Assembly: GCA_965203235.1 (NCBI GenBank) | Contig: CBDBCH010000002.1 | Span: forward strand, 94 to 64,093 | DNA length: 64,000 nucleotides | Direction of reading: 5' to 3' | DNA from: Longimicrobiales bacterium | GTDB lineage: Bacteria > Gemmatimonadota > Gemmatimonadetes > Longimicrobiales > Gaopeijiaceae | In this document: positions 1-59,148 of the stretch, piece after piece | Layout: each line of letters starts with the position of its first letter | Numbering within the stretch: position 1 is the first letter of the stretch | Translations under genes and position numbers: made by a program | Notes under the pieces: generated by a model | What the model was told of the DNA's origin: nothing | What the model saw: the letters and a program-made list of their open reading frames with translations, nothing else | Databases searched by the model: none

Positions 1-2419
1 CCGCGATTTTCCGAATGAGTCAAGCGACTGGCGGGACGATTCCGGCGAACGGGGACGAGGTTCAGGTGCTCGACCGGGCTACCCGGCGAGTCCTGTTCGC
101 GGGCAACATCAGGAATCCGCGCTGGCGTGGGCTGATCTCCGATTCGTGGATACGGGTAGATGCTGCGGCGATTGGCGCGGAAGGCGTCTCCGGGACAGGC
201 TGATACCGCCAGCGGACGGGGTGCGTATCGCCAAGATGACCACCGGGCAGGCGCAGGTCGTCGCGCTGGTGGGCTTGTTTTCGGGCGAGGGATTTACGCT
301 CGACGGGACCGTTGGAGACCTTGCTCCGATTCCCAGACGATGTTCGGCTCCAGTCCGTCGAGTCGGTGCTCTCACGGTTGCTAGATACGGGTGACTTCAT
401 TTTCACTGTCTCGAACGACAAGGTGGTGCGAGTTCGGGCGCGGGGGTCTCTCCCGACTTCCGCCCTGATAGCCGGACCGGACAACGTGTCGCTCATCAGC
501 ACGGAGACTGACGCGAGCAACCACCGGACGCGCCAGTGGGTGCGACATGGATCGTCACCGGCAAGCGGACTTTCAACGGGATGGCCGCTCCCGGCGGTTT
601 CCGGTGGTGGTTTCCAGCGCGGAGGAACTGGATTTTTTCTCCGATTCCGCCACCACGACGGCGAAGAACGCTGACCGGGACCGGGGGCTTCGGTGGCGGT
701 TCGATGCGCGGGCGGCGATTCGGACTGACCTGAATGGGGGGATCGACTTCGTCGGGGGCAATGCGCTGACGGCGGCTTCCGGGACGGTCTACATGGGGGA
801 AGTCGGGTATCCGCCTACCGGGGTTGATGTGGAGGAAGCGGGCGGCGCGGGGACCCTGATGTCAATGGAGATTCCGGCTGCGCCCACCTTCCTTCCGGGG
901 TACGCGTTGGGGATTCGGCATACGGCGAGCGGTGACGTTTGGACGTTCGAGGATCAGAGGATCGTCGATAGCTACGGGGGAAACAATGTTCGCCGGGAGG
1001 CCTCGCAAGACAGGCTGCTCGGACACTATCGGGCGGATGACCAGTACCCCGGACAGGCTGTGGGTGGTTAGCGGCAGAACGGCGCGGGCGTACCATTTCA
1101 ATGGGGTTCGGGACGCGGCGCGGGACGTGACGTTCACCGGCTTGATTCACAGCATCGCAGGAATCGGGAATCGGCTCTACGCGCTGACCGGCGAGCTTTC
1201 GATTGGCGGCTCAGCTTTCCCTGTCGCTTTCGAGGTGGAAGTCCGGGACGCGAATACGAAGAACGAGATAACCCAGACGGGGGCACCGAGCTTCCTGAAC
1301 CGACCGGATGATGGCACCTTGATATGGGGACCTTGCCGTTGGGGGCGGAATCGTTTGGATGCTCCGGGGCACGACGGAAGCGGCGCGGCGGGGCGGCAAC
1401 ACTCTTGGCTGGAAGGCGGAGGCCTACGATCAGGACGACTGGACGCGGTTGACCGACCGGGACATCACCGTGAACACCCCGGAGGATACGCAGATTGCGG
1501 CTACGCGGCTCTACGTTTGGGGGAACCACCTGTACTACCGGGGGCAGAGAAACTGGCACACGGCGTACAACATGTCGACTGGCGAGAGCGAGGCTGCGCA
1601 CGTCGTTGATTCGTTCAACCTGACCCGCCCGACCATCGGCGAGGGAGAGGAACCCGTCGCGGGCAACTCCCGGCTCTGGATTCGCCCTTCATCGACTTCC
1701 GGGCAGCTTCGGGCTTGGCGGCTTGGGCGGGCGCGAGGGCAGTTCCGAAAGCCCACCACCACCGAGGCTCTGGCGATGCGCTCCCGGCTCTCGCAGGACG
1801 ACCGCTTCCGGGTCATCCTCATGGACGCCAGCGTTCCGGGCGTCTCCGCTACCCGCGCTCGCTACGAACCCGTCTCCGTGGATGTTCAGGAAATCACTTC
1901 CCTGAGCGTTGACGGTACCGACATCGAGCTTGGGGGCTCCGGGTGGCACTTCGACGCCGCCACCCAAGAGCTTGCCATCCATATCGGGAGCGTGGGAACC
2001 CCGACCACCAGTCAGCAGATAATCATCGAGTGGGTCGGGCGCGCGCTTGCGCTGGCGAGTAAGGAAGGGCTTGCGGTGGACCGGCTGACCGAGTTCGAGG
2101 GGCAGGACGCCTTGCGCTTCGACGAGCGCAGCGGGCGGCGCAAATCCTCTTGGGGCAGCACGGGGAGGTAGCCGAGCGGCTGATAGTCCGCTTCGTCTGG
2201 GGCACCCCCATCCATGTGGAGGTCGGGCAGCGGCTACAAATTGACAGTAGCTTGGCGGCGAAGTACGGTGTGAAGAACCCCACCGGCGCCGACCGTTGGC
2301 TGGTTTCCGAAGTCGTTATTACCGAGCAGGGCGATTTGATTCGCTACGAGGTTCGGTGTATCCGGGATCGGTTCCAGCAGCGGTGGGCGGATTTCTGGCG
2401 TAGCATTGCGAGGAACTGA
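1..2419 (+). pseudogene. Frameshift-disrupted copy of the 1225-aa tail protein gene, truncated at the window edge
   Basis: Fragments 15..203, 146..394, 312..674, 547..1071, 932..1609, 1359..2171 and 2150..2419, in rotating frames, reproduce consecutive stretches of the intact ORF 30379..34056(-). There are at least 6 frame changes. Confidence 0.8.
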
Positions 2420-44680: not shown

Positions 44681-45934
44681 GGAAAACAGAATGGCGAGTC
44701 CGGGGGAGCTTCCTACCCGCCTTACAAGGAACTGATTGCGCAAGATGTCGCGTTTCTTGGGGTCCGCCAGCTTGCGTGGCGCGCGTTCTGGCTGCGCCAC
44801 TACATCTACGAGCTAGCCCCGAAAGACCAGGACCCCGAAGCACGAGCGGCGCTGGAGGCGACCCGCAAGGAATACCGCCGCCGCCTCCGCCCCCGGATAG
44901 ACGACGAGGACGAACTCGAGGATCGGGAGCGTCGCGCCGCCGATGCCGAAAATGATGCCGCCGCAGCGCGGATTCTCACCGAGCACCGCCCGCATCTGAC
45001 GCTAGTACCCTTCGGACTGCCAGAGCCGCCAGCTGTAATCAAGCCCGCCCACCGCCAGGGAGTTTTCCTCGGTGAGGGGATGGTCGGGATAATGAGCGGT
45101 CCGGGGGAGACCGGGAAATCCACGAGCTTGCTCGCCTTGCTTCACGCCGCCGGGCCCGCCCACTCGAAAGGAATTGACCCCTTCGGGACTGCGATAGGAC
45201 TGAGCGTCCGGCAGGGCCCGGTAGCCCTCCTGAACTACGAGGACCCGCCCCAAATCATCGCCCGCCGCATGGAATGGTACGGACCCCCTTCGGATTGGTC
45301 GCACGTGAACTTGATGAGCGCAAACTGCGGACCGCTATGGGGGCCGGAAGATAACTTCGCCCGGGTCTATTCGGAGACGGAGGACTGGAGCATTCTCTGG
45401 TCGGAAGTGAAAAAGGTAGGTGCGAAGCTCGTGGTCATCGACCCAGCGAGCGTCGCTTTCGCCGGGAATGCGAACGAAGCGGCCGGGGTACGCGCTTTCC
45501 TGGCCGCCCTGACCGGTCAAGCAGTCAAGAACGCGTGCGCCGTCCTCTTGATCGCCCATGATACGAAGTCAAGCCGCAGGGAAGCTGATGTCGCTGGAAC
45601 AGTCTCCGGGTCCGCCCAATGGGTGGATGGCGCCCGCGCCGTCCTGCACCTGCGACCACTGCCGCCAGCGCATGAACACTCCAACCCGGAGCTAGGGGAA
45701 GATCGCTTGCTGGTCATCGCAAAGGCGAACTACGCCCGGTCGGGTATCGGACACGTGCTGGTGCCTCGCACCGGGAGCGATGGTAGATGGGCGGGATTGG
45801 AGGCCGCCAGCCCCGCAAGGGAGTACAGTCGCCATGAGATCGCCGCCCTCGTCAAGGGCGCAGGCAAGCCGAAACAGAAAAAAGCGAAAGCGGAAGAACC
45901 AGAAGAAGCCGAAACAGACGACGTCGACTTCTAA
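44678..45934 (+). CDS. RecA-like (AAA_25/RepA-DnaB C-terminal type) ATPase, paralog 1 (418 aa)
   Basis: Walker A GPGETGKST, Walker B KLVVIDPASVAF, and LLIAHDTKSSR...SGSAQWVDGARAVLHL. It is the only + strand gene here and is divergent from the portal gene. Confidence 0.7.
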   Translation: MGKQNGESGGASYPPYKELIAQDVAFLGVRQLAWRAFWLRHYIYELAPKDQDPEARAALEATRKEYRRRLRPRIDDEDELEDRERRAADAENDAAAARILTEHRPHLTLVPFGLPEPPAVIKPAHRQGVFLGEGMVGIMSGPGETGKSTSLLALLHAAGPAHSKGIDPFGTAIGLSVRQGPVALLNYEDPPQIIARRMEWYGPPSDWSHVNLMSANCGPLWGPEDNFARVYSETEDWSILWSEVKKVGAKLVVIDPASVAFAGNANEAAGVRAFLAALTGQAVKNACAVLLIAHDTKSSRREADVAGTVSGSAQWVDGARAVLHLRPLPPAHEHSNPELGEDRLLVIAKANYARSGIGHVLVPRTGSDGRWAGLEAASPAREYSRHEIAALVKGAGKPKQKKAKAEEPEEAETDDVDF

Positions 45935-46974
45935 ATCTTGATGGTGTCTACAGGCGCGCTGTAGTTCGCCATCGGCACCGAGAGGAAAGCGTTGTTGTCG
46001 TCGTCCCTTTCGATGTGAAGAATCGCCCGGAAGGTCGCATTCCATTGAACTGACCCTGATACGCCGCGGTCGCCGCCCTTGCCGGAATGCGCCACCGCGC
46101 AGAACGCGAGTCCCTTCGTTTTCGCTTCTTCGTTCATGCTCTGGATGAACTGCCGGGCGGGAGACGCAGTTTCGCCAGCGTCGAACGCTGCCGCCAGGGG
46201 GTCGAGCAGGAGAACGCCGCCCTCGGTGATGCCGAGCTTGCGTCTGGCGTCCCGCGCCGCCAGCCCCACCTCATCCCAGAATCTTGCGAACCAAGGACTA
46301 GGACCGGAGCCGGTTCCGGTGTCGCGGGTCTGCCACAGGGGGCGCGCCTTCATCGGGACGAAAAAGAGGGCGTCAGAGCCCGTGAAGCCGAGTTGCGAAG
46401 CTCGCTGGCGCATTCGGAACGGGGAATCCTCGTAGGAAGCGAGAATCCAGGGGGATACCCGGACGGAAATTCCCATGTGGTTGACGCGGGAGCCGGGCTT
46501 GCCGCCGGTCGCCTTGACCGCAAGCTGGAGCGAGAAAGTGCTCTTGCCCGCCTTTGGCAAACCTGTGATAGCAAGTGGTTCCCCGATTGACAGGAGAGAG
46601 CCGGTTCGGTCGTTCGCCAGGCGGATTTCGGGGTCGGGGAACTGAACCTGCGCCGGAAGCAGGGTAGGCGCGAACTCGCCAAGAGCTTGCCGGACTATCC
46701 GAACCCGATCCTCCTCGCCGGTGTCGGTGTGCGCCGCGAGCTCCAGTTGCGCCAGCTTTTCGGCCTCGTCCGCGTAGTCGGTCGTTTGACCGAACACCTT
46801 TCGGGAAAGCCGAATCATGGCCGCGTTGTACTCCCGGCGAGCTTCCGAGGCCTTGCGGGAGCCTTGATCCCGAAGCGAGCGATACTCTCGCATCTTCGAG
46901 CAGGCAAGCTCGGTCAGGTATTGGGTGTCGGGGTCGTCGGGGACGAGGGTCTTGACCGGAAGTTCGTGACTCAT
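45931..46974 (-). CDS. RecA-like (AAA_25/RepA-DnaB C-terminal type) ATPase, paralog 2 (347 aa)
   Basis: Walker A GLPKAGKST, Walker B GVLLLDPLAAAF, and CAVAHSGKGGDRGVSGSVQWNATFRAILHI. Alignable by eye with 44678..45934. Confidence 0.7.
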   Translation of the reverse strand: MSHELPVKTLVPDDPDTQYLTELACSKMREYRSLRDQGSRKASEARREYNAAMIRLSRKVFGQTTDYADEAEKLAQLELAAHTDTGEEDRVRIVRQALGEFAPTLLPAQVQFPDPEIRLANDRTGSLLSIGEPLAITGLPKAGKSTFSLQLAVKATGGKPGSRVNHMGISVRVSPWILASYEDSPFRMRQRASQLGFTGSDALFFVPMKARPLWQTRDTGTGSGPSPWFARFWDEVGLAARDARRKLGITEGGVLLLDPLAAAFDAGETASPARQFIQSMNEEAKTKGLAFCAVAHSGKGGDRGVSGSVQWNATFRAILHIERDDDNNAFLSVPMANYSAPVDTIKI

Positions 46975-47205
46975 AGCAGCTTCCTCTGCGTCGGGACGAG
47001 CGTCATGGGATGCCCCTACGCGGGTCTTTGCGGGAGAAAGCAGGAAAAAACCGCTCGCCGCGCAGGGGGTCTGTGTAGCCCTCGGCCGGGTCGTCGCGGA
47101 CCAGAACGACCAGCACGGAGTGCGGTGCCCATAAAGGAGTGTTCCGAATTTGGGAAAACAGAACAGTGGGCTACGGGTCGCTCGCCGACCGAGGGCAAGA
47201 TCATC

Positions 47206-47772
47206 CTAGCACTTCTCCGAAGTGCCTTCAAGCTGAAACCGCCTTCGCGACTCGTTTTTCTTCCGCTGGTATTCCAGGAAACAGCCCCGGCACTTCTTGC
47301 GGCGCGCCCGGCGGGGTGCTTCCCACCAGTCTTTCAGAATCCGATCTCCGCAATCCCCGCACAGGTGTCGGGTGTGCGGAACCCACGCTTCCCCGCGCCT
47401 CTTCGCCCGCGCCTTCCCGAGTTGGCAGTCCCGGCACCGGAGCGAACCGCGCCTGGGGTCGTATATCCAGTCGTCGGCAACTTGAATCTCGCAGTCTCTA
47501 CACTGGAACGGTCGCAGTCTTGGGTTTTTCCGATTCCGTTCCATTTGTCTTTCCCGCTTGGCCTCTCGGTTCATCGTTCGGAATTTCATATCTTCTTCGC
47601 TCTGATCATCTTCGCTTTCGTGGATATCAAGTCGAGGCAGGACATCATCTATGTGCTTGCGCAGCAACGCCTCCCGCATTCGCCGGTCTGCATCTTCTTT
47701 GACCCGCTTCAGCCATTCATCGACCGGGTTCCTTTCCGGCGGTTCCTGAATGGGATTGTAGATTTCGTTCAC
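47206..47772 (-). CDS. Cys-rich multi-zinc-ribbon protein (188 aa)
   Basis: CRDC...CRDC, CGDC...CRGC pairs. Acidic and basic N-terminal half. GTG start at 47772. Confidence 0.55.
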   Translation of the reverse strand: MNEIYNPIQEPPERNPVDEWLKRVKEDADRRMREALLRKHIDDVLPRLDIHESEDDQSEEDMKFRTMNREAKRERQMERNRKNPRLRPFQCRDCEIQVADDWIYDPRRGSLRCRDCQLGKARAKRRGEAWVPHTRHLCGDCGDRILKDWWEAPRRARRKKCRGCFLEYQRKKNESRRRFQLEGTSEKC

Positions 47773-47789
47773 CGTGATATGCTATCCCC

Positions 47790-48125
47790 ATGAGAAAGCG
47801 CAGCGCAGCCGAAGAACGTCTGGCGATTCTGATTGACCGTGCGGGAATTCCGAAGCCGGAGCGGGAACTGGTTTTCGCCCGGCCTCGCCGGTGGCGGTTC
47901 GACTTCGCCTGGCCTGACCTGCTGCTCGCGGTCGAAGTCGAGGGGATTTCTCCGGGGTTCGGTTCGAGACATCAGCGGATCGGCGGGTTCTTGAAGGATT
48001 GCGAAAAGTATGAAGCCGCCGTCTTGGGCGGTTGGATGGTGTACCGAGTGCCGACCACCTGGATCGAGCGGGAACCGAACAGGGTCATTCGGAACATCAA
48101 ATCGCTGGTGGAGATGGCGAGTTAG
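47790..48125 (+). CDS. PD-(D/E)XK nuclease (DUF559/Vsr-like) (111 aa)
   Basis: ...RWRFDFAWPDLLLAVEVEG....H......KD.EKYEAAVLGGWMVYRV fits the DUF559 pattern (D-F...E-V-D/E-G...H...D..K/R...GW.V.R). Opposite strand to all neighbours. Confidence 0.6.
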   Translation: MRKRSAAEERLAILIDRAGIPKPERELVFARPRRWRFDFAWPDLLLAVEVEGISPGFGSRHQRIGGFLKDCEKYEAAVLGGWMVYRVPTTWIEREPNRVIRNIKSLVEMAS

Positions 48126-48128
48126 GGC

Positions 48129-48452
48129 TCATCCCTTTTTCTGCTTGCTGCGCCTTGCATTTTTCGCTTCTCGCCGGGCGCAGTATTCGTCCATAGCGGC
48201 GAGAACTGCTTTCCTCTCATCTACGGTGCATTGCTCTATGGGGAGCGTGTAGATTGCGGTACGGACTATCACCGAGACTTGATGCTGTATCCCGGTTGTT
48301 TCATTTGCGACTACCACGCATTCGCCTGCCTTTGCGAAACTGCTGTGTCCCAACACCGCGCCGCAAGCGCAGCTATCAACTTCTTCGACTTTCTTGTCAT
48401 GGGGATGCACTGAAACGTAGCGGTAGACGACCTTCCTCTTGATGGTTCTCAC
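48129..48452 (-). CDS. Hypothetical protein (107 aa)
   Basis: VRTIKRKVVYRYVSVHPHDKKVEEVDSCACG... The GTG overlaps the upstream stop (GTGA). ORF-track 48129..48677 is trimmed. Confidence 0.5.
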   Translation of the reverse strand: MRTIKRKVVYRYVSVHPHDKKVEEVDSCACGAVLGHSSFAKAGECVVVANETTGIQHQVSVIVRTAIYTLPIEQCTVDERKAVLAAMDEYCARREAKNARRSKQKKG

Positions 48453-48754
48453 TTGTCTTTCTCCATAATCTCGTGCCCGACCATCTCCTCGATGCGCGGG
48501 TCGCGGTGGGGATACAGACCGTGGAACTTGGCCGTCCAGTGCTTCCGGTCGCGGGGCCGCTCGCAATTCCCGATGATCGGATAGAGCGCCTCGGAGTCCT
48601 CCCGCCATTCCGGGGACTCCAGCAGCGTCTTGTAGGGGTCGCCGCCGAAGCGCCCGAGATGGTAGATCATCGCCCACATGTGGGGGTGGCGCCGCCAGAT
48701 GACGCGCCAGTGGGCGACGTTCACGGGCCGCAAATCCGCGAGGAACTGGTTCAC
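48449..48754 (-). CDS. Hypothetical Trp-rich protein (101 aa), paralog of 49011..49355
   Basis: WRVIWRRHPHMWAMIYHLGRFGGDPYKTLLESPEWREDSEALYPI can be aligned with QRLWRKQPRYWYVIHAMAKTPAGHFREIAESDEWKRDAKHVFYA. Confidence 0.55.
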   Translation of the reverse strand: MNQFLADLRPVNVAHWRVIWRRHPHMWAMIYHLGRFGGDPYKTLLESPEWREDSEALYPIIGNCERPRDRKHWTAKFHGLYPHRDPRIEEMVGHEIMEKDK

Positions 48755-49011
48755 CGCGTCTCCCTGTGCTCGGAGATCGCCCGCCGCATCTCGTCGACGA
48801 GACGCTCCACGCTCCTGTGCACGCTCGTCACGACCTCGGCATCAACAGCCCATCGCGCCAGTACGTCCCGGACCCGCCGCAAGTCGCGCTCGAGTTGTGT
48901 CGCAGCGTCAAGTCGGAGACCGACGGCCGGTTGCTCGTCCTCGTAGCCTTCGGGAGGCGAGTGCAGATCAGGCTGGTTCTGCGGGAGATTCGGGCGGTTG
49001 CGATAGCTCAT
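48751..49011 (-). CDS. Hypothetical protein (86 aa)
   Basis: MSYRNRPNLPQNQPDLHSPPEGYEDEQ... The ATG overlaps the upstream stop (TGATG, seen in the mirror at 54754..54758). Confidence 0.5.
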   Translation of the reverse strand: MSYRNRPNLPQNQPDLHSPPEGYEDEQPAVGLRLDAATQLERDLRRVRDVLARWAVDAEVVTSVHRSVERLVDEMRRAISEHRETR

Positions 49012-49355
49012 CAGAAAAGGCTCTGCTGTTTGACCGGGGCGCGGTTTCGGTCGTCTGCGGGGTTTTCCAGCATCGCCAGTAGCTTTGCGTGCGTCTCCTG
49101 CTCGCGCCGCTTCACAGCTTCCGGGTCGGGAGCCGTCAATTCGGCGAACGGCTTGGCCCAGTCGGGCACCGAGTAGTTTTCCGGGCGGGTCGCGCCCATC
49201 GCGTAGAACACATGCTTCGCATCCCGCTTCCACTCGTCGCTTTCTGCGATCTCGCGGAAGTGGCCGGCTGGTGTTTTCGCCATCGCATGGATGACGTACC
49301 AGTACCGGGGCTGCTTGCGCCAGAGCCTCTGCTGTGCCTTGATGTCAACCGGCAC
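49011..49355 (-). CDS. Hypothetical Trp-rich protein (114 aa), paralog of 48449..48754
   Basis: See 48449..48754. GTG start. Confidence 0.55.
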   Translation of the reverse strand: MPVDIKAQQRLWRKQPRYWYVIHAMAKTPAGHFREIAESDEWKRDAKHVFYAMGATRPENYSVPDWAKPFAELTAPDPEAVKRREQETHAKLLAMLENPADDRNRAPVKQQSLF

Positions 49356-49869
49356 TTTGCGCCGCCATCCGCTTCTTTCTCCAGTACCTTTCGCGCTCCA
49401 GTCTCCTCTCGCGCACTCGGTAGCAGGGTTCGCATGTGCGTCCCTGCGTGCGGTGCCGCGGCAGTCGGAGACGACCGCAAGCCGAGCACTTGACGCGCCC
49501 GTCGGGACGACGAAGATTCTCAGGTCGACGCAATTCCCGGAGCCGCACCAGGTAGCAGGGGCGGCATCTCCTCATCCGGGGCTTCGCGGGCGGGCGATCT
49601 CGGCCGCAGTCGCGGCACATGATCGGCTCCAGCGACGTGTTGCAGATAGGGCAAATTCCGCCGTGAAGGTCGGCGTCAAACACCTTGTCGCATCGCGCGC
49701 AGCACTGGGAAGGGACATTGATCGGGCGCCTCCTCTTGGGCCCCGGCGGCATCTTCTCGTCGAGCGGGCATGGATCCTCCAGGAGCGCCTTCTCGAACTC
49801 GAGGCGCATGCGCTCCACTCGATCCGCCCGAAGGGATGGCGAGTGTCTGCTATTCGGCATACCTGACAC
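49345..49869 (-). CDS. Cys-rich multi-zinc-ribbon protein (about 171-174 aa)
   Basis: CARC...CPIC, CRDC...CRPC, CSAC...CEPC pairs. The start is either GTG at 49869 or ATG at 49860. Confidence 0.55.
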   Translation of the reverse strand: MSGMPNSRHSPSLRADRVERMRLEFEKALLEDPCPLDEKMPPGPKRRRPINVPSQCCARCDKVFDADLHGGICPICNTSLEPIMCRDCGRDRPPAKPRMRRCRPCYLVRLRELRRPENLRRPDGRVKCSACGRLRLPRHRTQGRTCEPCYRVRERRLERERYWRKKRMAAQSAG

Positions 49870-49875
49870 GCCGAG

Positions 49876-50427
49876 TCATTGCTTGGCGTTCCTCTTCCAC
49901 CACTTCTTGAGGCACGGGTCGCAGCGCATCCGCATCCCCTGCCTGCCGCTCGTCATAGCCGTCCCGCACTCCACGCAAAGACCCGACTGGCGACGCTCGC
50001 GCTTGACGCCCATTTTCCGGGCGCGACTCCGGTGCCGCTCTGCGAGAGCGCGGTTCGCCTGGGCGCGCTTGCCAGTGGTCGATCTGATGCTGGACGGCCC
50101 CACCTTTTCGATAAGCGCCCCCTCGCCGCGCCCCTTCGACTGACGCCTTCCGCCGCCGGGCGGCCGGCTCGACCTGCTCATGGCGTTCCGGTAGGCGTCG
50201 TATTTCCGGCTCCTGCCCTGGGCGCGACCTGTGGTCATCCTGATGCTGGAGGGGCCGACCCGCGTGGCCAGCGCGCCTTCTCCGCGCCCCTTTCCTCCCC
50301 GCTTCCGGACGCGACGGCTGACCTCCTTCTCCTGACACCGGTCGCACTTGGTGAAGTGCGAAGGCTCCCAGCACTGCGTGCACAAGCCGTTGTCCACACA
50401 GTGCCAGTACTCCCAGTATCGAGGCAT
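49876..50427 (-). CDS. Zinc-ribbon protein with an internal ~40-aa tandem repeat (183 aa)
   Basis: N-terminal CTQC...CDRC and C-terminal CVEC...CDPC flank two copies of KGRGEGAL(A/I)x(R/K)VGPSSIR(M/S)TTG(R/K). Confidence 0.55.
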   Translation of the reverse strand: MPRYWEYWHCVDNGLCTQCWEPSHFTKCDRCQEKEVSRRVRKRGGKGRGEGALATRVGPSSIRMTTGRAQGRSRKYDAYRNAMSRSSRPPGGGRRQSKGRGEGALIEKVGPSSIRSTTGKRAQANRALAERHRSRARKMGVKRERRQSGLCVECGTAMTSGRQGMRMRCDPCLKKWWKRNAKQ

Positions 50428-50525
50428 CAGGACTTCCAGCGAATCGTAATCCGGCGGTCAAGCCACCGACGAAAGCGACCGCGCAGGATGCGCAGGCGGG
50501 AGTTCCGGGGGGCATAGTGAATCAT
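50427..50525 (-). CDS. Possible very small basic protein (32 aa)
   Basis: MIHYAPRNSRLRILRGRFRRWLDRRITIRWKS. It exactly fills the gap between two genes, with ATGA and TGATG coupling at both ends (mirror 53242..53340). Confidence 0.35.
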   Translation of the reverse strand: MIHYAPRNSRLRILRGRFRRWLDRRITIRWKS

Positions 50526-50713
50526 TTGTTTTCTCCTACGATGTACCATCCCAATTCGTCGATGGCATCCTCGATGCGATACCTAGCATTACGGAGCGAG
50601 AGTCTATCTTCGACGTCGAGTTTCGCCAGTTCCTCGGCATCGAACTGGTCCAGTTCCTCTAGGGCGGCGATGAGCCGCTCCTGGACCTCTTCCGCTCGCT
50701 CCAGCGTGGTCAT
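50522..50713 (-). CDS. Small acidic coiled-coil protein (63 aa)
   Basis: MTTLERAEEVQERLIAALEELDQFDAEELAKLD... The ATG is preceded by GGAG at 7 nt (mirror 53054). The ORF-track GTG start would add 10 codons. Confidence 0.5.
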   Translation of the reverse strand: MTTLERAEEVQERLIAALEELDQFDAEELAKLDVEDRLSLRNARYRIEDAIDELGWYIVGENK

Positions 50714-50730
50714 GTTCTGCTCCGATCCGA

Positions 50731-51027
50731 TCAGGAGAACCACCCGCGAACCTGCCGATGAGCCTCAGCCTTGCCACCGGCAATGTCCCGGTGGAACAGA
50801 ATGTCTCCCGATTCCTGCATGTAGCAGAACCGGTAGCACCCCCGGAAGGGGAACAGGATTCCGACCTGGTCAACCCGGGTTCTCCCGATGAGCTTGACCC
50901 TCTCCTTGCCCGAACCATCACTGGGTTCGAACTCGATGAGGACGCCCCCGAACTCGAGTTCCAGGACTTCGCCAATGCTCATGGGCCGGTCGGGGAGGCC
51001 GGCGTGGTTTTCGATTTGCTTTCTCAT
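50731..51027 (-). CDS. Telomere-proximal hypothetical protein of the right end (98 aa)
   Basis: MRKQIENHAGLPDRPMSIGEV... It has the same promoter, RBS and first 3 codons as 17308..17721 and is unrelated afterwards. Confidence 0.6.
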   Translation of the reverse strand: MRKQIENHAGLPDRPMSIGEVLELEFGGVLIEFEPSDGSGKERVKLIGRTRVDQVGILFPFRGCYRFCYMQESGDILFHRDIAGGKAEAHRQVRGWFS

Positions 51028-51034
51028 GTGACTG

Positions 51035-51141
51035 CCCTCCTTTGTGGCAGACGGGAATCCTAGCGTGCCCGAATTCGCCCTGTCAAGTGCCAATTCGCCC
51101 AAATCGGCACTTTTTTCGCCCAAATCGCATTTTTTTTCGCC
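51035..51141 (-). promoter_or_regulatory. ITR promoter/operator/RBS module (right end)
   Basis: Same sequence as 15506..15612. atccta at 51057..51062 and cat (start codon) at 51025..51027. Confidence 0.55.
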
Positions 51142-51521
51142 TCCTGCGGCCGGAAAACGAAAAAACGCACGAAAGGGGTTCAGACGCCACCGGAACGACC
51201 GAGGGGATAGCTGGCTAGCCGTAGCGCGCCAGGATGCCCACAGCGCGCCACAGAATCGCATTCAGGGGAACATCTGACCGGCAGACGCCCCCGGATTCGG
51301 ACCGCCGGGGCGGAAAAGACCGGCCGACCGCTCCGAAAAATCGCCTCCCCATCTCCGAGTCGCCTCCCCCCCGACTCCCCCCTGAGGGGGAGGAGGAGTC
51401 GGGGTGGAGGCGTCTCTCCAAAACACCCTCGAAAACGGCGCAAATCGGGGGAGCGAGGGCGGGACGCCAGGGACGCGGGTTCGACCGGGGGGTTCGAGGG
51501 CGGAAATCGGGGTTCTGAAAC

Positions 51522-51817
51522 CTGTCATTCGCGCTTCATTCTCGCTTCATTCTCGCTTCATCAAGGCGATGAAAGCTAACATCCCTGGGGGGGGAGTTCG
51601 GGAAATGAACCGGGGGGCTTCCACCGCTGGCGGGGATGATTCGCGGATGAAGCGCGGATGATAGAGACATCAGCGAGACATCAAGGCTAACATCAAGGGC
51701 GGATGAAGCGCGGATGATAGAGACATCCGGCGTGTCATACGGCGATGAAAAGCTAACATCAAGCTGTCATCAAGCCCACGAGCGCTATGCATAAGGCGTG
51801 TCATGTATCATTTTCGC
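51522..51817. repeat. Subtelomeric iteron-like repeat array (ITR copy C)
   Basis: Same sequence as 15993..16288 (offset +35529). Mirror copies lie at 16518..16813 and 51950..52245. Confidence 0.85.
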
Positions 51818-51949
51818 TAGCGGGAGTATGCACCTATCATCCTTAGCCGGGGACCGCTAGAAGCTCTTGGGGACGATGATAGCCCGCAAGCCCCGCTAGC
51901 CCCAGCATGTTTCGCGCCGGAGAACGATGATAGGTGCAAACTCCCGCTT
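51818..51949. other. Junction-2 core: 132 bp, asymmetric, a shortened and inverted version of the junction-1 core
   Basis: 51818..51842 is the reverse complement of 16493..16517. 51843..51846 is ttag. 51847..51949 is the reverse complement of 16289..16391. Only the outer ~25 nt on each side can pair (22/25). Confidence 0.85.
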
Positions 51950-52749
51950 GCGAAAATGATACATGACACGCCTTATGCATAGCGCTCGTGGGCTTGATGA
52001 CAGCTTGATGTTAGCTTTTCATCGCCGTATGACACGCCGGATGTCTCTATCATCCGCGCTTCATCCGCCCTTGATGTTAGCCTTGATGTCTCGCTGATGT
52101 CTCTATCATCCGCGCTTCATCCGCGAATCATCCCCGCCAGCGGTGGAAGCCCCCCGGTTCATTTCCCGAACTCCCCCCCCAGGGATGTTAGCTTTCATCG
52201 CCTTGATGAAGCGAGAATGAAGCGAGAATGAAGCGCGAATGACAGGTTTCAGAACCCCGATTTCCGCCCTCGAACCCCCCGGTCGAACCCGCGTCCCTGG
52301 CGTCCCGCCCTCGCTCCCCCGATTTGCGCCGTTTTCGAGGGTGTTTTGGAGAGACGCCTCCACCCCGACTCCTCCTCCCCCTCAGGGGGGAGTCGGGGGG
52401 GAGGCGACTCGGAGATGGGGAGGCGATTTTTCGGAGCGGTCGGCCGGTCTTTTCCGCCCCGGCGGTCCGAATCCGGGGGCGTCTGCCGGTCAGATGTTCC
52501 CCTGAATGCGATTCTGTGGCGCGCTGTGGGCATCCTGGCGCGCTACGGCTAGCCAGCTATCCCCTCGGTCGTTCCGGTGGCGTCTGAACCCCTTTCGTGC
52601 GTTTTTTCGTTTTCCGGCCGCAGGAGGCGAAAAAAAATGCGATTTGGGCGAAAAAAGTGCCGATTTGGGCGAATTGGCACTTGACAGGGCGAATTCGGGC
52701 ACGCTAGGATTCCCGTCTGCCACAAAGGAGGGCAGTCACATGAGAAAGC
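51884..52749. repeat. Inverted terminal repeat, copy D (right arm of junction 2)
   Basis: Reverse complement of 51018..51883 outside the core. 51950..52749 is identical to 16518..17317. Confidence 0.9.
52626..52732 (+). promoter_or_regulatory. ITR promoter/operator/RBS module
   Basis: Identical to 17194..17300 (offset +35432). TTGACA at 52681, TAGGAT at 52705, ATG at 52740. Confidence 0.55.
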
Positions 52750-53036
52750 AAATCGAAAACCACGCCGGCCTCCCCGACCGGCCCATGAGCATTGGCGAAG
52801 TCCTGGAACTCGAGTTCGGGGGCGTCCTCATCGAGTTCGAACCCAGTGATGGTTCGGGCAAGGAGAGGGTCAAGCTCATCGGGAGAACCCGGGTTGACCA
52901 GGTCGGAATCCTGTTCCCCTTCCGGGGGTGCTACCGGTTCTGCTACATGCAGGAATCGGGAGACATTCTGTTCCACCGGGACATTGCCGGTGGCAAGGCT
53001 GAGGCTCATCGGCAGGTTCGCGGGTGGTTCTCCTGA
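52740..53036 (+). CDS. Telomere-proximal hypothetical protein of the right end (98 aa)
   Basis: Mirror of 50731..51027 (x+y=103767). Confidence 0.6.
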   Translation: MRKQIENHAGLPDRPMSIGEVLELEFGGVLIEFEPSDGSGKERVKLIGRTRVDQVGILFPFRGCYRFCYMQESGDILFHRDIAGGKAEAHRQVRGWFS

Positions 53037-53053
53037 TCGGATCGGAGCAGAAC

Positions 53054-53245
53054 ATGACCACGCTGGAGCGAGCGGAAGAGGTCCAGGAGCGGCTCATCGC
53101 CGCCCTAGAGGAACTGGACCAGTTCGATGCCGAGGAACTGGCGAAACTCGACGTCGAAGATAGACTCTCGCTCCGTAATGCTAGGTATCGCATCGAGGAT
53201 GCCATCGACGAATTGGGATGGTACATCGTAGGAGAAAACAAATGA
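53054..53245 (+). CDS. Small acidic coiled-coil protein (63 aa)
   Basis: Mirror of 50522..50713. Confidence 0.5.
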   Translation: MTTLERAEEVQERLIAALEELDQFDAEELAKLDVEDRLSLRNARYRIEDAIDELGWYIVGENK

Positions 53246-53340
53246 TTCACTATGCCCCCCGGAACTCCCGCCTGCGCATCCTGCGCGGTCGCTTTCGTCG
53301 GTGGCTTGACCGCCGGATTACGATTCGCTGGAAGTCCTGA
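53242..53340 (+). CDS. Possible very small basic protein (32 aa)
   Basis: Mirror of 50427..50525. Confidence 0.35.
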   Translation: MIHYAPRNSRLRILRGRFRRWLDRRITIRWKS

Positions 53341-53891
53341 TGCCTCGATACTGGGAGTACTGGCACTGTGTGGACAACGGCTTGTGCACGCAGTGCTGGG
53401 AGCCTTCGCACTTCACCAAGTGCGACCGGTGTCAGGAGAAGGAGGTCAGCCGTCGCGTCCGGAAGCGGGGAGGAAAGGGGCGCGGAGAAGGCGCGCTGGC
53501 CACGCGGGTCGGCCCCTCCAGCATCAGGATGACCACAGGTCGCGCCCAGGGCAGGAGCCGGAAATACGACGCCTACCGGAACGCCATGAGCAGGTCGAGC
53601 CGGCCGCCCGGCGGCGGAAGGCGTCAGTCGAAGGGGCGCGGCGAGGGGGCGCTTATCGAAAAGGTGGGGCCGTCCAGCATCAGATCGACCACTGGCAAGC
53701 GCGCCCAGGCGAACCGCGCTCTCGCAGAGCGGCACCGGAGTCGCGCCCGGAAAATGGGCGTCAAGCGCGAGCGTCGCCAGTCGGGTCTTTGCGTGGAGTG
53801 CGGGACGGCTATGACGAGCGGCAGGCAGGGGATGCGGATGCGCTGCGACCCGTGCCTCAAGAAGTGGTGGAAGAGGAACGCCAAGCAATGA
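53340..53891 (+). CDS. Zinc-ribbon protein with an internal tandem repeat (183 aa)
   Basis: Mirror of 49876..50427. Confidence 0.55.
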   Translation: MPRYWEYWHCVDNGLCTQCWEPSHFTKCDRCQEKEVSRRVRKRGGKGRGEGALATRVGPSSIRMTTGRAQGRSRKYDAYRNAMSRSSRPPGGGRRQSKGRGEGALIEKVGPSSIRSTTGKRAQANRALAERHRSRARKMGVKRERRQSGLCVECGTAMTSGRQGMRMRCDPCLKKWWKRNAKQ

Positions 53892-53897
53892 CTCGGC

Positions 53898-54422
53898 GTG
53901 TCAGGTATGCCGAATAGCAGACACTCGCCATCCCTTCGGGCGGATCGAGTGGAGCGCATGCGCCTCGAGTTCGAGAAGGCGCTCCTGGAGGATCCATGCC
54001 CGCTCGACGAGAAGATGCCGCCGGGGCCCAAGAGGAGGCGCCCGATCAATGTCCCTTCCCAGTGCTGCGCGCGATGCGACAAGGTGTTTGACGCCGACCT
54101 TCACGGCGGAATTTGCCCTATCTGCAACACGTCGCTGGAGCCGATCATGTGCCGCGACTGCGGCCGAGATCGCCCGCCCGCGAAGCCCCGGATGAGGAGA
54201 TGCCGCCCCTGCTACCTGGTGCGGCTCCGGGAATTGCGTCGACCTGAGAATCTTCGTCGTCCCGACGGGCGCGTCAAGTGCTCGGCTTGCGGTCGTCTCC
54301 GACTGCCGCGGCACCGCACGCAGGGACGCACATGCGAACCCTGCTACCGAGTGCGCGAGAGGAGACTGGAGCGCGAAAGGTACTGGAGAAAGAAGCGGAT
54401 GGCGGCGCAAAGTGCCGGTTGA
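53898..54422 (+). CDS. Cys-rich multi-zinc-ribbon protein
   Basis: Mirror of 49345..49869. Confidence 0.55.
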   Translation: MSGMPNSRHSPSLRADRVERMRLEFEKALLEDPCPLDEKMPPGPKRRRPINVPSQCCARCDKVFDADLHGGICPICNTSLEPIMCRDCGRDRPPAKPRMRRCRPCYLVRLRELRRPENLRRPDGRVKCSACGRLRLPRHRTQGRTCEPCYRVRERRLERERYWRKKRMAAQSAG

Positions 54423-54756
54423 CATCAAGGCACAGCAGAGGCTCTGGCGCAAGCAGCCCCGGTACTGGTACGTCATCCATGCGATGGCGAAAACACCAGC
54501 CGGCCACTTCCGCGAGATCGCAGAAAGCGACGAGTGGAAGCGGGATGCGAAGCATGTGTTCTACGCGATGGGCGCGACCCGCCCGGAAAACTACTCGGTG
54601 CCCGACTGGGCCAAGCCGTTCGCCGAATTGACGGCTCCCGACCCGGAAGCTGTGAAGCGGCGCGAGCAGGAGACGCACGCAAAGCTACTGGCGATGCTGG
54701 AAAACCCCGCAGACGACCGAAACCGCGCCCCGGTCAAACAGCAGAGCCTTTTCTGA
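54412..54756 (+). CDS. Hypothetical Trp-rich protein (114 aa)
   Basis: Mirror of 49011..49355. Confidence 0.55.
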   Translation: MPVDIKAQQRLWRKQPRYWYVIHAMAKTPAGHFREIAESDEWKRDAKHVFYAMGATRPENYSVPDWAKPFAELTAPDPEAVKRREQETHAKLLAMLENPADDRNRAPVKQQSLF

Positions 54757-55016
54757 TGAGCTATCGCAACCGCCCGAATCTCCCGCAGAACCAGCCTGAT
54801 CTGCACTCGCCTCCCGAAGGCTACGAGGACGAGCAACCGGCCGTCGGTCTCCGACTTGACGCTGCGACACAACTCGAGCGCGACTTGCGGCGGGTCCGGG
54901 ACGTACTGGCGCGATGGGCTGTTGATGCCGAGGTCGTGACGAGCGTGCACAGGAGCGTGGAGCGTCTCGTCGACGAGATGCGGCGGGCGATCTCCGAGCA
55001 CAGGGAGACGCGGTGA
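54756..55016 (+). CDS. Hypothetical protein (86 aa)
   Basis: Mirror of 48751..49011. Confidence 0.5.
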   Translation: MSYRNRPNLPQNQPDLHSPPEGYEDEQPAVGLRLDAATQLERDLRRVRDVLARWAVDAEVVTSVHRSVERLVDEMRRAISEHRETR

Positions 55017-55318
55017 ACCAGTTCCTCGCGGATTTGCGGCCCGTGAACGTCGCCCACTGGCGCGTCATCTGGCGGCGCCACCCCCACATGTGGGCGATGA
55101 TCTACCATCTCGGGCGCTTCGGCGGCGACCCCTACAAGACGCTGCTGGAGTCCCCGGAATGGCGGGAGGACTCCGAGGCGCTCTATCCGATCATCGGGAA
55201 TTGCGAGCGGCCCCGCGACCGGAAGCACTGGACGGCCAAGTTCCACGGTCTGTATCCCCACCGCGACCCGCGCATCGAGGAGATGGTCGGGCACGAGATT
55301 ATGGAGAAAGACAAGTGA
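55013..55318 (+). CDS. Hypothetical Trp-rich protein (101 aa)
   Basis: Mirror of 48449..48754. Confidence 0.55.
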   Translation: MNQFLADLRPVNVAHWRVIWRRHPHMWAMIYHLGRFGGDPYKTLLESPEWREDSEALYPIIGNCERPRDRKHWTAKFHGLYPHRDPRIEEMVGHEIMEKDK

Positions 55319-55638
55319 GAACCATCAAGAGGAAGGTCGTCTACCGCTACGTTTCAGTGCATCCCCATGACAAGAAAGTCGAAGAAGTTGATAGCTGCGC
55401 TTGCGGCGCGGTGTTGGGACACAGCAGTTTCGCAAAGGCAGGCGAATGCGTGGTAGTCGCAAATGAAACAACCGGGATACAGCATCAAGTCTCGGTGATA
55501 GTCCGTACCGCAATCTACACGCTCCCCATAGAGCAATGCACCGTAGATGAGAGGAAAGCAGTTCTCGCCGCTATGGACGAATACTGCGCCCGGCGAGAAG
55601 CGAAAAATGCAAGGCGCAGCAAGCAGAAAAAGGGATGA
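55315..55638 (+). CDS. Hypothetical protein (107 aa)
   Basis: Mirror of 48129..48452. Confidence 0.5.
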   Translation: MRTIKRKVVYRYVSVHPHDKKVEEVDSCACGAVLGHSSFAKAGECVVVANETTGIQHQVSVIVRTAIYTLPIEQCTVDERKAVLAAMDEYCARREAKNARRSKQKKG

Positions 55639-55641
55639 GCC

Positions 55642-55977
55642 CTAACTCGCCATCTCCACCAGCGATTTGATGTTCCGAATGACCCTGTTCGGTTCCCGCT
55701 CGATCCAGGTGGTCGGCACTCGGTACACCATCCAACCGCCCAAGACGGCGGCTTCATACTTTTCGCAATCCTTCAAGAACCCGCCGATCCGCTGATGTCT
55801 CGAACCGAACCCCGGAGAAATCCCCTCGACTTCGACCGCGAGCAGCAGGTCAGGCCAGGCGAAGTCGAACCGCCACCGGCGAGGCCGGGCGAAAACCAGT
55901 TCCCGCTCCGGCTTCGGAATTCCCGCACGGTCAATCAGAATCGCCAGACGTTCTTCGGCTGCGCTGCGCTTTCTCAT
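55642..55977 (-). CDS. PD-(D/E)XK nuclease (DUF559/Vsr-like)
   Basis: Mirror of 47790..48125. Confidence 0.6.
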   Translation of the reverse strand: MRKRSAAEERLAILIDRAGIPKPERELVFARPRRWRFDFAWPDLLLAVEVEGISPGFGSRHQRIGGFLKDCEKYEAAVLGGWMVYRVPTTWIEREPNRVIRNIKSLVEMAS

Positions 55978-55994
55978 GGGGATAGCATATCACG

Positions 55995-56561
55995 GTGAAC
56001 GAAATCTACAATCCCATTCAGGAACCGCCGGAAAGGAACCCGGTCGATGAATGGCTGAAGCGGGTCAAAGAAGATGCAGACCGGCGAATGCGGGAGGCGT
56101 TGCTGCGCAAGCACATAGATGATGTCCTGCCTCGACTTGATATCCACGAAAGCGAAGATGATCAGAGCGAAGAAGATATGAAATTCCGAACGATGAACCG
56201 AGAGGCCAAGCGGGAAAGACAAATGGAACGGAATCGGAAAAACCCAAGACTGCGACCGTTCCAGTGTAGAGACTGCGAGATTCAAGTTGCCGACGACTGG
56301 ATATACGACCCCAGGCGCGGTTCGCTCCGGTGCCGGGACTGCCAACTCGGGAAGGCGCGGGCGAAGAGGCGCGGGGAAGCGTGGGTTCCGCACACCCGAC
56401 ACCTGTGCGGGGATTGCGGAGATCGGATTCTGAAAGACTGGTGGGAAGCACCCCGCCGGGCGCGCCGCAAGAAGTGCCGGGGCTGTTTCCTGGAATACCA
56501 GCGGAAGAAAAACGAGTCGCGAAGGCGGTTTCAGCTTGAAGGCACTTCGGAGAAGTGCTAG
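55995..56561 (+). CDS. Cys-rich multi-zinc-ribbon protein (188 aa)
   Basis: Mirror of 47206..47772. Confidence 0.55.
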   Translation: MNEIYNPIQEPPERNPVDEWLKRVKEDADRRMREALLRKHIDDVLPRLDIHESEDDQSEEDMKFRTMNREAKRERQMERNRKNPRLRPFQCRDCEIQVADDWIYDPRRGSLRCRDCQLGKARAKRRGEAWVPHTRHLCGDCGDRILKDWWEAPRRARRKKCRGCFLEYQRKKNESRRRFQLEGTSEKC

Positions 56562-56792
56562 GATGATCTTGCCCTCGGTCGGCGAGCGACCCGTAGCCCA
56601 CTGTTCTGTTTTCCCAAATTCGGAACACTCCTTTATGGGCACCGCACTCCGTGCTGGTCGTTCTGGTCCGCGACGACCCGGCCGAGGGCTACACAGACCC
56701 CCTGCGCGGCGAGCGGTTTTTTCCTGCTTTCTCCCGCAAAGACCCGCGTAGGGGCATCCCATGACGCTCGTCCCGACGCAGAGGAAGCTGCT

Positions 56793-57836
56793 ATGAGTCA
56801 CGAACTTCCGGTCAAGACCCTCGTCCCCGACGACCCCGACACCCAATACCTGACCGAGCTTGCCTGCTCGAAGATGCGAGAGTATCGCTCGCTTCGGGAT
56901 CAAGGCTCCCGCAAGGCCTCGGAAGCTCGCCGGGAGTACAACGCGGCCATGATTCGGCTTTCCCGAAAGGTGTTCGGTCAAACGACCGACTACGCGGACG
57001 AGGCCGAAAAGCTGGCGCAACTGGAGCTCGCGGCGCACACCGACACCGGCGAGGAGGATCGGGTTCGGATAGTCCGGCAAGCTCTTGGCGAGTTCGCGCC
57101 TACCCTGCTTCCGGCGCAGGTTCAGTTCCCCGACCCCGAAATCCGCCTGGCGAACGACCGAACCGGCTCTCTCCTGTCAATCGGGGAACCACTTGCTATC
57201 ACAGGTTTGCCAAAGGCGGGCAAGAGCACTTTCTCGCTCCAGCTTGCGGTCAAGGCGACCGGCGGCAAGCCCGGCTCCCGCGTCAACCACATGGGAATTT
57301 CCGTCCGGGTATCCCCCTGGATTCTCGCTTCCTACGAGGATTCCCCGTTCCGAATGCGCCAGCGAGCTTCGCAACTCGGCTTCACGGGCTCTGACGCCCT
57401 CTTTTTCGTCCCGATGAAGGCGCGCCCCCTGTGGCAGACCCGCGACACCGGAACCGGCTCCGGTCCTAGTCCTTGGTTCGCAAGATTCTGGGATGAGGTG
57501 GGGCTGGCGGCGCGGGACGCCAGACGCAAGCTCGGCATCACCGAGGGCGGCGTTCTCCTGCTCGACCCCCTGGCGGCAGCGTTCGACGCTGGCGAAACTG
57601 CGTCTCCCGCCCGGCAGTTCATCCAGAGCATGAACGAAGAAGCGAAAACGAAGGGACTCGCGTTCTGCGCGGTGGCGCATTCCGGCAAGGGCGGCGACCG
57701 CGGCGTATCAGGGTCAGTTCAATGGAATGCGACCTTCCGGGCGATTCTTCACATCGAAAGGGACGACGACAACAACGCTTTCCTCTCGGTGCCGATGGCG
57801 AACTACAGCGCGCCTGTAGACACCATCAAGATTTAG
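56793..57836 (+). CDS. RecA-like ATPase, paralog 2
   Basis: Mirror of 45931..46974. Confidence 0.7.
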   Translation: MSHELPVKTLVPDDPDTQYLTELACSKMREYRSLRDQGSRKASEARREYNAAMIRLSRKVFGQTTDYADEAEKLAQLELAAHTDTGEEDRVRIVRQALGEFAPTLLPAQVQFPDPEIRLANDRTGSLLSIGEPLAITGLPKAGKSTFSLQLAVKATGGKPGSRVNHMGISVRVSPWILASYEDSPFRMRQRASQLGFTGSDALFFVPMKARPLWQTRDTGTGSGPSPWFARFWDEVGLAARDARRKLGITEGGVLLLDPLAAAFDAGETASPARQFIQSMNEEAKTKGLAFCAVAHSGKGGDRGVSGSVQWNATFRAILHIERDDDNNAFLSVPMANYSAPVDTIKI

Positions 57837-59089
57837 AAGTCGACGTCGTCTGTTTCGGCTTCTTCTGGTTCTTCCGCTTTCGCTTTTTTCTGTTTCGGCT
57901 TGCCTGCGCCCTTGACGAGGGCGGCGATCTCATGGCGACTGTACTCCCTTGCGGGGCTGGCGGCCTCCAATCCCGCCCATCTACCATCGCTCCCGGTGCG
58001 AGGCACCAGCACGTGTCCGATACCCGACCGGGCGTAGTTCGCCTTTGCGATGACCAGCAAGCGATCTTCCCCTAGCTCCGGGTTGGAGTGTTCATGCGCT
58101 GGCGGCAGTGGTCGCAGGTGCAGGACGGCGCGGGCGCCATCCACCCATTGGGCGGACCCGGAGACTGTTCCAGCGACATCAGCTTCCCTGCGGCTTGACT
58201 TCGTATCATGGGCGATCAAGAGGACGGCGCACGCGTTCTTGACTGCTTGACCGGTCAGGGCGGCCAGGAAAGCGCGTACCCCGGCCGCTTCGTTCGCATT
58301 CCCGGCGAAAGCGACGCTCGCTGGGTCGATGACCACGAGCTTCGCACCTACCTTTTTCACTTCCGACCAGAGAATGCTCCAGTCCTCCGTCTCCGAATAG
58401 ACCCGGGCGAAGTTATCTTCCGGCCCCCATAGCGGTCCGCAGTTTGCGCTCATCAAGTTCACGTGCGACCAATCCGAAGGGGGTCCGTACCATTCCATGC
58501 GGCGGGCGATGATTTGGGGCGGGTCCTCGTAGTTCAGGAGGGCTACCGGGCCCTGCCGGACGCTCAGTCCTATCGCAGTCCCGAAGGGGTCAATTCCTTT
58601 CGAGTGGGCGGGCCCGGCGGCGTGAAGCAAGGCGAGCAAGCTCGTGGATTTCCCGGTCTCCCCCGGACCGCTCATTATCCCGACCATCCCCTCACCGAGG
58701 AAAACTCCCTGGCGGTGGGCGGGCTTGATTACAGCTGGCGGCTCTGGCAGTCCGAAGGGTACTAGCGTCAGATGCGGGCGGTGCTCGGTGAGAATCCGCG
58801 CTGCGGCGGCATCATTTTCGGCATCGGCGGCGCGACGCTCCCGATCCTCGAGTTCGTCCTCGTCGTCTATCCGGGGGCGGAGGCGGCGGCGGTATTCCTT
58901 GCGGGTCGCCTCCAGCGCCGCTCGTGCTTCGGGGTCCTGGTCTTTCGGGGCTAGCTCGTAGATGTAGTGGCGCAGCCAGAACGCGCGCCACGCAAGCTGG
59001 CGGACCCCAAGAAACGCGACATCTTGCGCAATCAGTTCCTTGTAAGGCGGGTAGGAAGCTCCCCCGGACTCGCCATTCTGTTTTCCCAC
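57833..59089 (-). CDS. RecA-like ATPase, paralog 1
   Basis: Mirror of 44678..45934. Confidence 0.7.
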   Translation of the reverse strand: MGKQNGESGGASYPPYKELIAQDVAFLGVRQLAWRAFWLRHYIYELAPKDQDPEARAALEATRKEYRRRLRPRIDDEDELEDRERRAADAENDAAAARILTEHRPHLTLVPFGLPEPPAVIKPAHRQGVFLGEGMVGIMSGPGETGKSTSLLALLHAAGPAHSKGIDPFGTAIGLSVRQGPVALLNYEDPPQIIARRMEWYGPPSDWSHVNLMSANCGPLWGPEDNFARVYSETEDWSILWSEVKKVGAKLVVIDPASVAFAGNANEAAGVRAFLAALTGQAVKNACAVLLIAHDTKSSRREADVAGTVSGSAQWVDGARAVLHLRPLPPAHEHSNPELGEDRLLVIAKANYARSGIGHVLVPRTGSDGRWAGLEAASPAREYSRHEIAALVKGAGKPKQKKAKAEEPEEAETDDVDF

Positions 59090-59148
59090 GGTGGGGATTC
59101 TACCCGGAACCTTGCTACCTGTATCAAGGTGGGATACGCTCCAGCACC

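Follow-up and report, generated by a model that had tools for sequence, protein, structure and literature searches.

A fold-back assembly of a linear tailed-phage genome with putative mismatched hairpin telomeres, one core of which is 97 nt short

The DNA considered here, a stretch of 64,000 nt that we refer to as the window, is a fold-back (read-through) assembly of a linear tailed-phage genome of about 35.5 kb, the strands of which are continuous at both ends. The genome turns around at two junctions, J1 on the left and J2 on the right. We consider it quite probable that these junctions represent mismatched telomeres of a tailed phage that are made without a protelomerase. Since a single strand carries one arm of the terminal core (arm A), an apex and a second arm (arm B) that is not complementary to the first, the assembly must derive either from a hairpin-ended genome or from its inverted-dimer replicative form. 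The ends may accordingly be covalently closed hairpin telomeres or inverted-dimer replication junctions, and it is from the sequence of the junctions that we infer their closure.

Two turn-around points and the genome between them

When the window is compared with itself, J1 and J2 emerge as the centres of very long palindromes, and the order along the window reads reverse complement of the genome, J1, genome, J2, reverse complement of the genome. At J1, positions 1-16288 are mirrored by 16518-32806, with arms of at least 16.3 kb; at J2, positions 39767-51850 are mirrored by 51917-64000 at 100% identity over 12,084 nt. These arms bear out the view of the first-pass annotation that the two junctions are turn-around points ending a single unit of about 35.5 kb. 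The unit between the two cores measures 35,300 bp and has a GC content of about 62%. Its features, and those of the junctions themselves, are collected in Table 1. Note that sequence quality is uneven between the two sides of the window: the distal left arm (1-10241 compared with 22564-32620) contains roughly one homopolymer indel per 350 nt, and the right arms show no difference at all. The right arm could be one that was not independently read.

Profile annotation recognises a structural module of tailed-phage type between the junctions, to which three large tail proteins and an SLT endolysin can be added, and the presence of HK97-type head, portal and tape-measure genes identifies the lineage as that of a tailed bacteriophage. 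No terminase large subunit was recognised anywhere in 16518-51817. A gene resembling the Dam family of adenine methyltransferases (42334-43176, minus strand) is located between the portal and scaffold genes; GATC is scarce in the unit, with 137 occurrences against 226 expected. A tail protein of 1266 aa (26287-30087, minus strand; mirror copy at 2700-6500) has internal repeats with a period of about 315-340 nt, including three 83-nt repeat cores at 60-71% identity, along with a second pair of repeats with a period of about 890 nt. This suggests a modular fibre or receptor-binding protein.

Table 1. Positions in the window of the terminal features and of genes mentioned in the text (rc, reverse complement).
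Feature	Position	Strand	Remarks
800-nt terminal repeat, inbound, left end	15489-16288		
Eight CTATCATC/GATGATAG motifs around J1	16128-16678		four on each side, two inside each core arm
J1 core, 229 nt	16289-16517		arm A 16289-16391; apex 16392-16414 (loop TGT 16402-16404); arm B 16415-16517
800-nt terminal repeat, outbound, left end	16518-17317		
Tape measure	34056-36263	-	
Major head protein	40451-41602	-	
Scaffold	41624-42313	-	
Portal, DUF4055 domain	43176-44843	-	
RepA-like (AAA_25) ATPase, divergent from portal gene	44678-45934	+	profile match
Second RepA-like (AAA_25) ATPase, convergent with the first	45931-46974	-	paralogue, 30% identical
Vsr/DUF559-like PD-(D/E)xK endonuclease	47790-48125	+	profile match; only nuclease recognised in the genome
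800-nt terminal repeat, inbound, right end	51018-51817		
Seven CTATCATC/GATGATAG motifs around J2	51657-52110		one inner copy gone with the deletion
J2 core, 132 nt	51818-51949		rc(J1) without positions 28-124
Outer 27 nt of arm version rc(B)	51818-51844	+	pairs with 51923-51949 at 24/27; outer CTATCATC at 51834-51841
78-nt unpaired centre	51845-51922	+	AG of the apex plus inner 76 nt of arm version rc(A); folds weakly alone
Complete arm version rc(A)	51847-51949	+	103/103 identical to rc(16289-16391)
800-nt terminal repeat, outbound, right end	51950-52749		within the 12,084-nt perfect palindrome arm

The terminal core, its shortened copy and the flanking repeats

Folding of the GC-rich J1 core gives a 113-bp hairpin that is closed by a 3-nt loop and interrupted by 16 one-by-one mismatches (dG -152.6 kcal/mol, z = -27.5). 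Mismatches are spaced 4-14 bp apart and end sharply at the core boundaries, outside which the near arms are identical over 2.4 kb. What the junction sequence describes is an incompletely paired terminal hairpin next to inverted terminal repeats. That the core is an imperfect palindrome implies two isoforms. As to the nature of the mismatches, 11 of the 16 in the J1 stem are homo-mismatches (A.A, T.T, G.G or C.C), in other words complement swaps between the arms (P ~0.004 against an expectation of 1/3), and two are G.T wobbles. In five of the seven A/T swaps, one arm has the palindrome CTAG where the other has CAAG or CTTG. Across the genome CTAG is found half as often as expected (27 copies against 54), and yet 4 copies fall within the 229-nt core. 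Strand-specific, modification-driven base-calling errors were considered as a source of the mismatches and rejected: CTAG and other sites in the perfectly palindromic flanks, which likewise come from opposite strands, are called alike on both arms, the differences halt at the core boundaries, and the supposed miscalls follow no consistent sequence context.

The first-pass annotation had described J2 as a shortened, asymmetric copy of the J1 core (132 against 229 nt), and direct comparison upholds this description together with the two matches on which it was built: positions 51818-51842 equal the reverse complement of 16493-16517 at 25/25 sites and 51847-51949 equal the reverse complement of 16289-16391 at 103/103, so that the same core is common to both junctions. 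Exact matches of such length are not a product of chance. A scripted comparison reduces the relationship to a single clean deletion of 97 nt, with J2 composed of positions 1..27 and 125..229 of rcJ1; 21 of the 23 apex nt are lost together with the inner 76 nt of one arm, and the deletion begins 3 nt past the outer CTATCATC motif. Core bases retained at J2 are identical to J1 throughout (130/130), and the variant positions kept there (18/18) carry the J1 alleles in the same phase, which means that the differences within the core, seen at J1 and again at J2, are not sequencing noise. The ttag that had been noted at 51843-51846 is indeed present but is not an insertion or filler, its TT being part of the arm and its AG the end of the apex. 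An outer pairing of 22/25 was correctly reported and becomes 24/27 once the two T's are added, and the single-copy centre, given as some 80 nt, measures 78 nt. Microhomology at the exact deletion junction is zero. An alternative parse has a 94-nt deletion between CCTT repeats and a separate loss of 3 nt; simple slippage between the CCTT repeats can be rejected as the cause, as it predicts a deletion of 94 nt and not of 97 nt.

One proposal of the first-pass annotation does not survive, namely that the inverse order of the arm versions at J2 is what flip/flop inversion predicts. Fold-back assembly leaves the orientation of each core arbitrary. The flanks of each junction are mutually reverse-complementary and the relative orientation of the J1 and J2 cores is therefore uninformative, a coin toss under every model: an assembler that equates reads with their reverse complements can fit either core orientation to either junction, and the read used as backbone decides. 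This argument from fold-back geometry would have an exception in single reads spanning both junctions.

Both cores are bordered by an inverted terminal repeat of exactly 800 nt, 100% identical between the left and right ends. At each end the repeat stops 9 nt inside the first gene (ATGAGAAAG), after which the sequences diverge. It contains a sigma-70-like promoter that scored as good (17249-17278, TTGACA-18-TAGGAT) as well as an AAGGAGG ribosome-binding site. GATGA/TCATC iterons, phased at 11 nt and present in both orientations, form arrays at 16608-16703 and 16774-16810 that look like putative binding arrays for a telomere, partition or origin protein. Near the right end, three basic ORFs with repeated CxxC...CxxC zinc-ribbon pairs (47209-47781, 49348-49875 and 49879-50457, all on the minus strand) returned no family matches; their products could be candidate DNA-binders of the telomeric or iteron motifs.

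The 64 kb contain 15 copies of the octamer CTATCATC compared with an expectation of 0.87, all within about 290 nt of a junction centre, and there are zero copies away from the two junctions. Copies in the fully paired flanks read CTATCATCC; both copies inside the core arm have a G.G mismatch at +1 (16313/16493 and 16364/16442), which becomes C.C in the other isoform. These telomere-restricted sites are likely to be bound by proteins and, by analogy with the hairpin mismatches of vaccinia, are plausible recognition elements.

Origin of the shorter core

A deletion variant, an aberrant resolution or slippage product and an assembly collapse had been put forward to explain the shorter core, and we judge this to be the right set of candidates. 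The explanation we prefer, to which we nevertheless give no better than an even chance, is that the 97-nt gap was introduced when the fold-back apex was sequenced or assembled and that the two telomeres are equivalent. Sequence would have been lost from the draft or consensus at the right-end apex and left unrestored by polishing; polishers unable to insert some 100 nt would leave an apex error of the draft in place. At 67,717 nt, the contig has the character of a long-read consensus in which errors remain: compared with its mirror, the left arm shows 29 single-base homopolymer indels and 4 substitutions, and frameshifts in this left copy interrupt the 871-, 1266- and 1225-aa tail genes, which are intact in the mirror. 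The deletion falls exactly on the apex, where fold-back reads align worst, and deletions without microhomology are unusual for in vivo slippage in bacteria. Everything that J2 retains is 100% identical to J1, and the difference between them hence has no evolutionary depth. Nanopore reads lose bases past an inverted-repeat junction (PMC7229812), although the re-zipping of nanopore templates should degrade the whole second arm and not excise exactly 97 nt. Other observations also sit badly with an origin in sequencing or assembly. J1, which is equal in sequence and flanks, was assembled intact, and the surroundings of J2 are otherwise flawless, as the perfect 12,084-nt arms attest. Moreover, clean boundaries and correct phasing would be the expected consensus of reads that truly carry the deletion.

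A recent real deletion is indeed a possibility to be taken seriously, if one on which we would not bet. Imagine that in the population, or in the few molecules that were sampled, the right telomere or the right-right dimer junction was without its apex and without the inner 76 nt of an arm. Palindrome instability might then be the cause; so might aberrant resolution, or an SbcCD-type nuclease that attacked the hairpin tip before the end closed again. Long palindromes in bacteria classically lose their centre of symmetry through asymmetric deletions, and what we observe is one clean deletion with perfectly phased retained arms, perfect flanks and both core boundaries kept along with the outer CTATCATC pair. 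Because these elements and the outer 27 bp are intact, the variant might, at a tentative guess, still replicate. Hairpin ends of phages are known to be at risk from SbcCD/Mre11-Rad50 (PMC12624138), and vaccinia tolerates the loss of some hairpin loops (PMC8956199). However, the lack of microhomology counts against a real deletion as well, a hairpin of this shape would expose a 78-nt, little-structured single-stranded loop to nucleases, and the asymmetry of the 78-nt centre should hinder cruciform-based resolution. In addition, the identical 800-nt repeats suggest continual homogenising, so that a deletion at one end should be repaired or spread; in AAV, deletions in the terminal repeat of one end do occur and are repaired from the other. 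Were J2 real all the same, it would be a natural deletion mutant that maps the minimal telomere, showing that ends can be resolved with no more than the outer 27 bp, the outer CTATCATC pair and the core boundaries, and that one end tolerates an unpaired loop of 78 nt. We regard as unlikely the joint proposition that the phage has poxvirus-like mismatched telomeres without a protelomerase and that J2 is a genuine, still-replicating form of them.

Could the two ends be meant to differ? Heterotelomeric parvoviruses provide a precedent for an evolved difference between left and right, as in minute virus of mice, but we find such a design extremely improbable here, and can give next to no credence to the idea that an asymmetric J2 directs one-sided resolution or packaging polarity. 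The sole support in the sequence is that J2 is asymmetric and unlike J1, whereas its 130 retained bases and its 800-nt flank match J1 without exception; had the two ends long differed in function, their sequences would have drifted apart instead of resembling one clean deletion of J1. The database searches described below also yielded no close relatives that might show the difference to be conserved. Nor do we expect, save with a very small probability, that telomeres are absent altogether and that chimeras formed in the library or during assembly have made an ordinary phage genome appear to fold back. Such chimeras would have to stem from amplification, from missed hairpin adapters or from template-complement read-through at open ends, any of which seems very unlikely to us. 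Fold-back contigs are a known long-read artefact, and the complete identity of the right arms is suspicious, as if one sequence had been reused. Chimeras at open ends, however, give perfect palindromes or adapter sequence, whereas J1 is an imperfect palindrome with 16 phased mismatches within 229 nt, the alleles of which are repeated at J2, and the apex is native sequence. Both fold-backs terminate exact 800-nt inverted repeats, both junctions lie inside a motif array that is absent elsewhere, with native end features flanking each of them, and the left arms differ by independent errors and were thus independently read.

If, as we prefer to think, the gap in J2 is an artefact of the fold-back apex, the consequence is a practical one: fold-back apices in long-read viral contigs need checks at the level of reads before ends are compared. 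By itself the shorter J2 is of moderate interest.

Known telomere systems, end resolution and relatives

In functional terms, ends such as these would be closest to the flip-flop hairpins of poxviruses, ASFV and chloroviruses, and next to the hairpins of rudiviruses and parvoviruses. With the termini of poxviruses (vaccinia), ASFV and chloroviruses they would share linear dsDNA, inverted terminal repeats, an incompletely base-paired terminal hairpin of about 100 nt, a replicated junction that is the duplex copy of the hairpin, and mismatches that persist only distal to the resolution sites. Vaccinia needs its hairpin mismatches for packaging and to bind the telomere protein I1 (PMC8956199). 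Yet there are clear differences. Host and virus lineage are not the same, since portal, HK97-type head and tape-measure genes place the present virus among the tailed bacteriophages; in place of extrahelical loops, the mismatches are all 1x1 substitutions, 11 of 16 of the X.X type; the core is GC-rich rather than AT-rich; and no homologue of the RuvC-like A22 was found among the scanned ORFs. Overall, the system appears to resemble poxvirus-type telomeres, with the structural features of that class and no recognisable resolvase.

Rudiviridae (SIRV1/2) and parvoviruses, with their rolling hairpins, likewise have hairpin-ended linear genomes and long inverted terminal repeats, pass through head-to-head and tail-to-tail intermediates, and owe flip/flop to asymmetry inside the hairpin. 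They differ in virion type and host domain, and in using a HUH Rep nickase (with Hjc in addition in the rudiviruses), neither of which was detected here. A further likeness is to the long-read fold-back assemblies of Borrelia, poxviruses and ASFV, in which the contig runs through the end into its reverse complement and the apex is error-prone; in the present case, unlike in those, one apex is affected and its identical counterpart is not, and instead of noisy sequence we see a clean loss of 97 nt.

Protelomerase replicons (N15 with TelN/telRL, PY54, phiKO2 and VP882; Borrelia with ResT; Agrobacterium with TelA) also have hairpin-ended linear DNA and inverted-dimer junctions. A protelomerase makes its cut in the middle of the replicated junction, after which each strand is joined to its own complement; a single round of such central resolution would leave perfectly paired A/rcA and rcB/B ends, which makes the mismatched stem incompatible with resolution by a protelomerase. 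Rather than the fully complementary stem of a centrally resolved palindrome, we find 16 mismatches in the 113-bp stem of J1 and their alleles again at J2. The N15 telRL core is a short palindrome of 56 bp that is cut at the centre (PMC12624138). The hairpins of protelomerase systems are fully paired; the ends described here have their 16 stem mismatches, 800-bp inverted repeats and no detectable protelomerase gene, and both features of protelomerase telomeres that were tested fail to appear. Among the scanned ORFs of the element itself, neither a protelomerase nor a tyrosine recombinase was matched in Pfam, PHROGs or NCBIfam and no unassigned ORF of protelomerase size is left, while the host may have such an enzyme.

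How else might the ends be resolved? As the mismatches cease at the core boundaries, strand exchange probably takes place at or near 16288/16289 and 16517/16518. End resolution would then preserve the arm-apex-arm continuity that each strand has of its own, a logic that would be that of poxvirus concatemer-junction resolution or rolling-hairpin transfer and not that of central cutting and rejoining. Our scan for enzymes took in every stop-to-stop ORF of 70-75 aa or more within 16518-22900 and 44600-51817 as well as the annotated ORFs of the structural region. Across these ORFs, from both non-structural arms and the structural region, there was no match to a HUH/Rep nickase, nor, among the same scanned ORFs, to a RuvC, RusA or Hjc resolvase. 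The Vsr/DUF559-like nuclease is a weak candidate for telomere nicking. Its standing as a dedicated telomere enzyme is weakened by a 54%-identical homologue among the structural genes of an unrelated, terminase-bearing phage. The N-termini of the two RepA-like ATPases are only short and helical, and a sequence search of the PDB with both ATPases and the nuclease produced no matches.

Mismatched hairpin telomeres in a tailed phage seem to be new, in that we did not find them described; the form already known from phages is that of the protelomerase (N15) group. In a search of open-access text, where absence is no proof of novelty, the bacterial examples of hairpin telomeres were protelomerase phages only, and no description of poxvirus-type telomeres in tailed phages was found in the open-access literature. 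Should our interpretation of the ends be true, it would constitute convergence with poxviruses, ASFV, chloroviruses and the archaeal rudiviruses, and would raise the questions of which enzyme resolves the ends, how a closed genome is packaged without a recognisable terminase, and what role the mismatches play.

Searches for related ends gave little. The exact core pattern had no match in IMG/VR. A pattern capturing the three-motif architecture had 18 matches across IMG/VR, GTDB genomes and JGI metagenomes, none of them similar to J1 in self-complementarity; we rejected these as related telomeres, since they appear to be simple repeats or random matches. No INPHARED phage or PLSDB plasmid matched the ends or the right arm in BLAST, and a portal-based search of IMG/VR for loci of close relatives yielded none. 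The best homologues of the portal, metagenomic sequences found among 5.8 billion proteins, are 41% identical, and the nearest cultured relatives by the same protein, Dinoroseobacter phage R5C and Xanthomonas phage Xp15, reach at most 30% identity. The contigs of these best portal homologues (L001, L006 and L007) contain no terminal palindromes in the parts examined. These distant relatives are also without a terminase beside the portal gene, and have RusA and a VapE-like helicase there.
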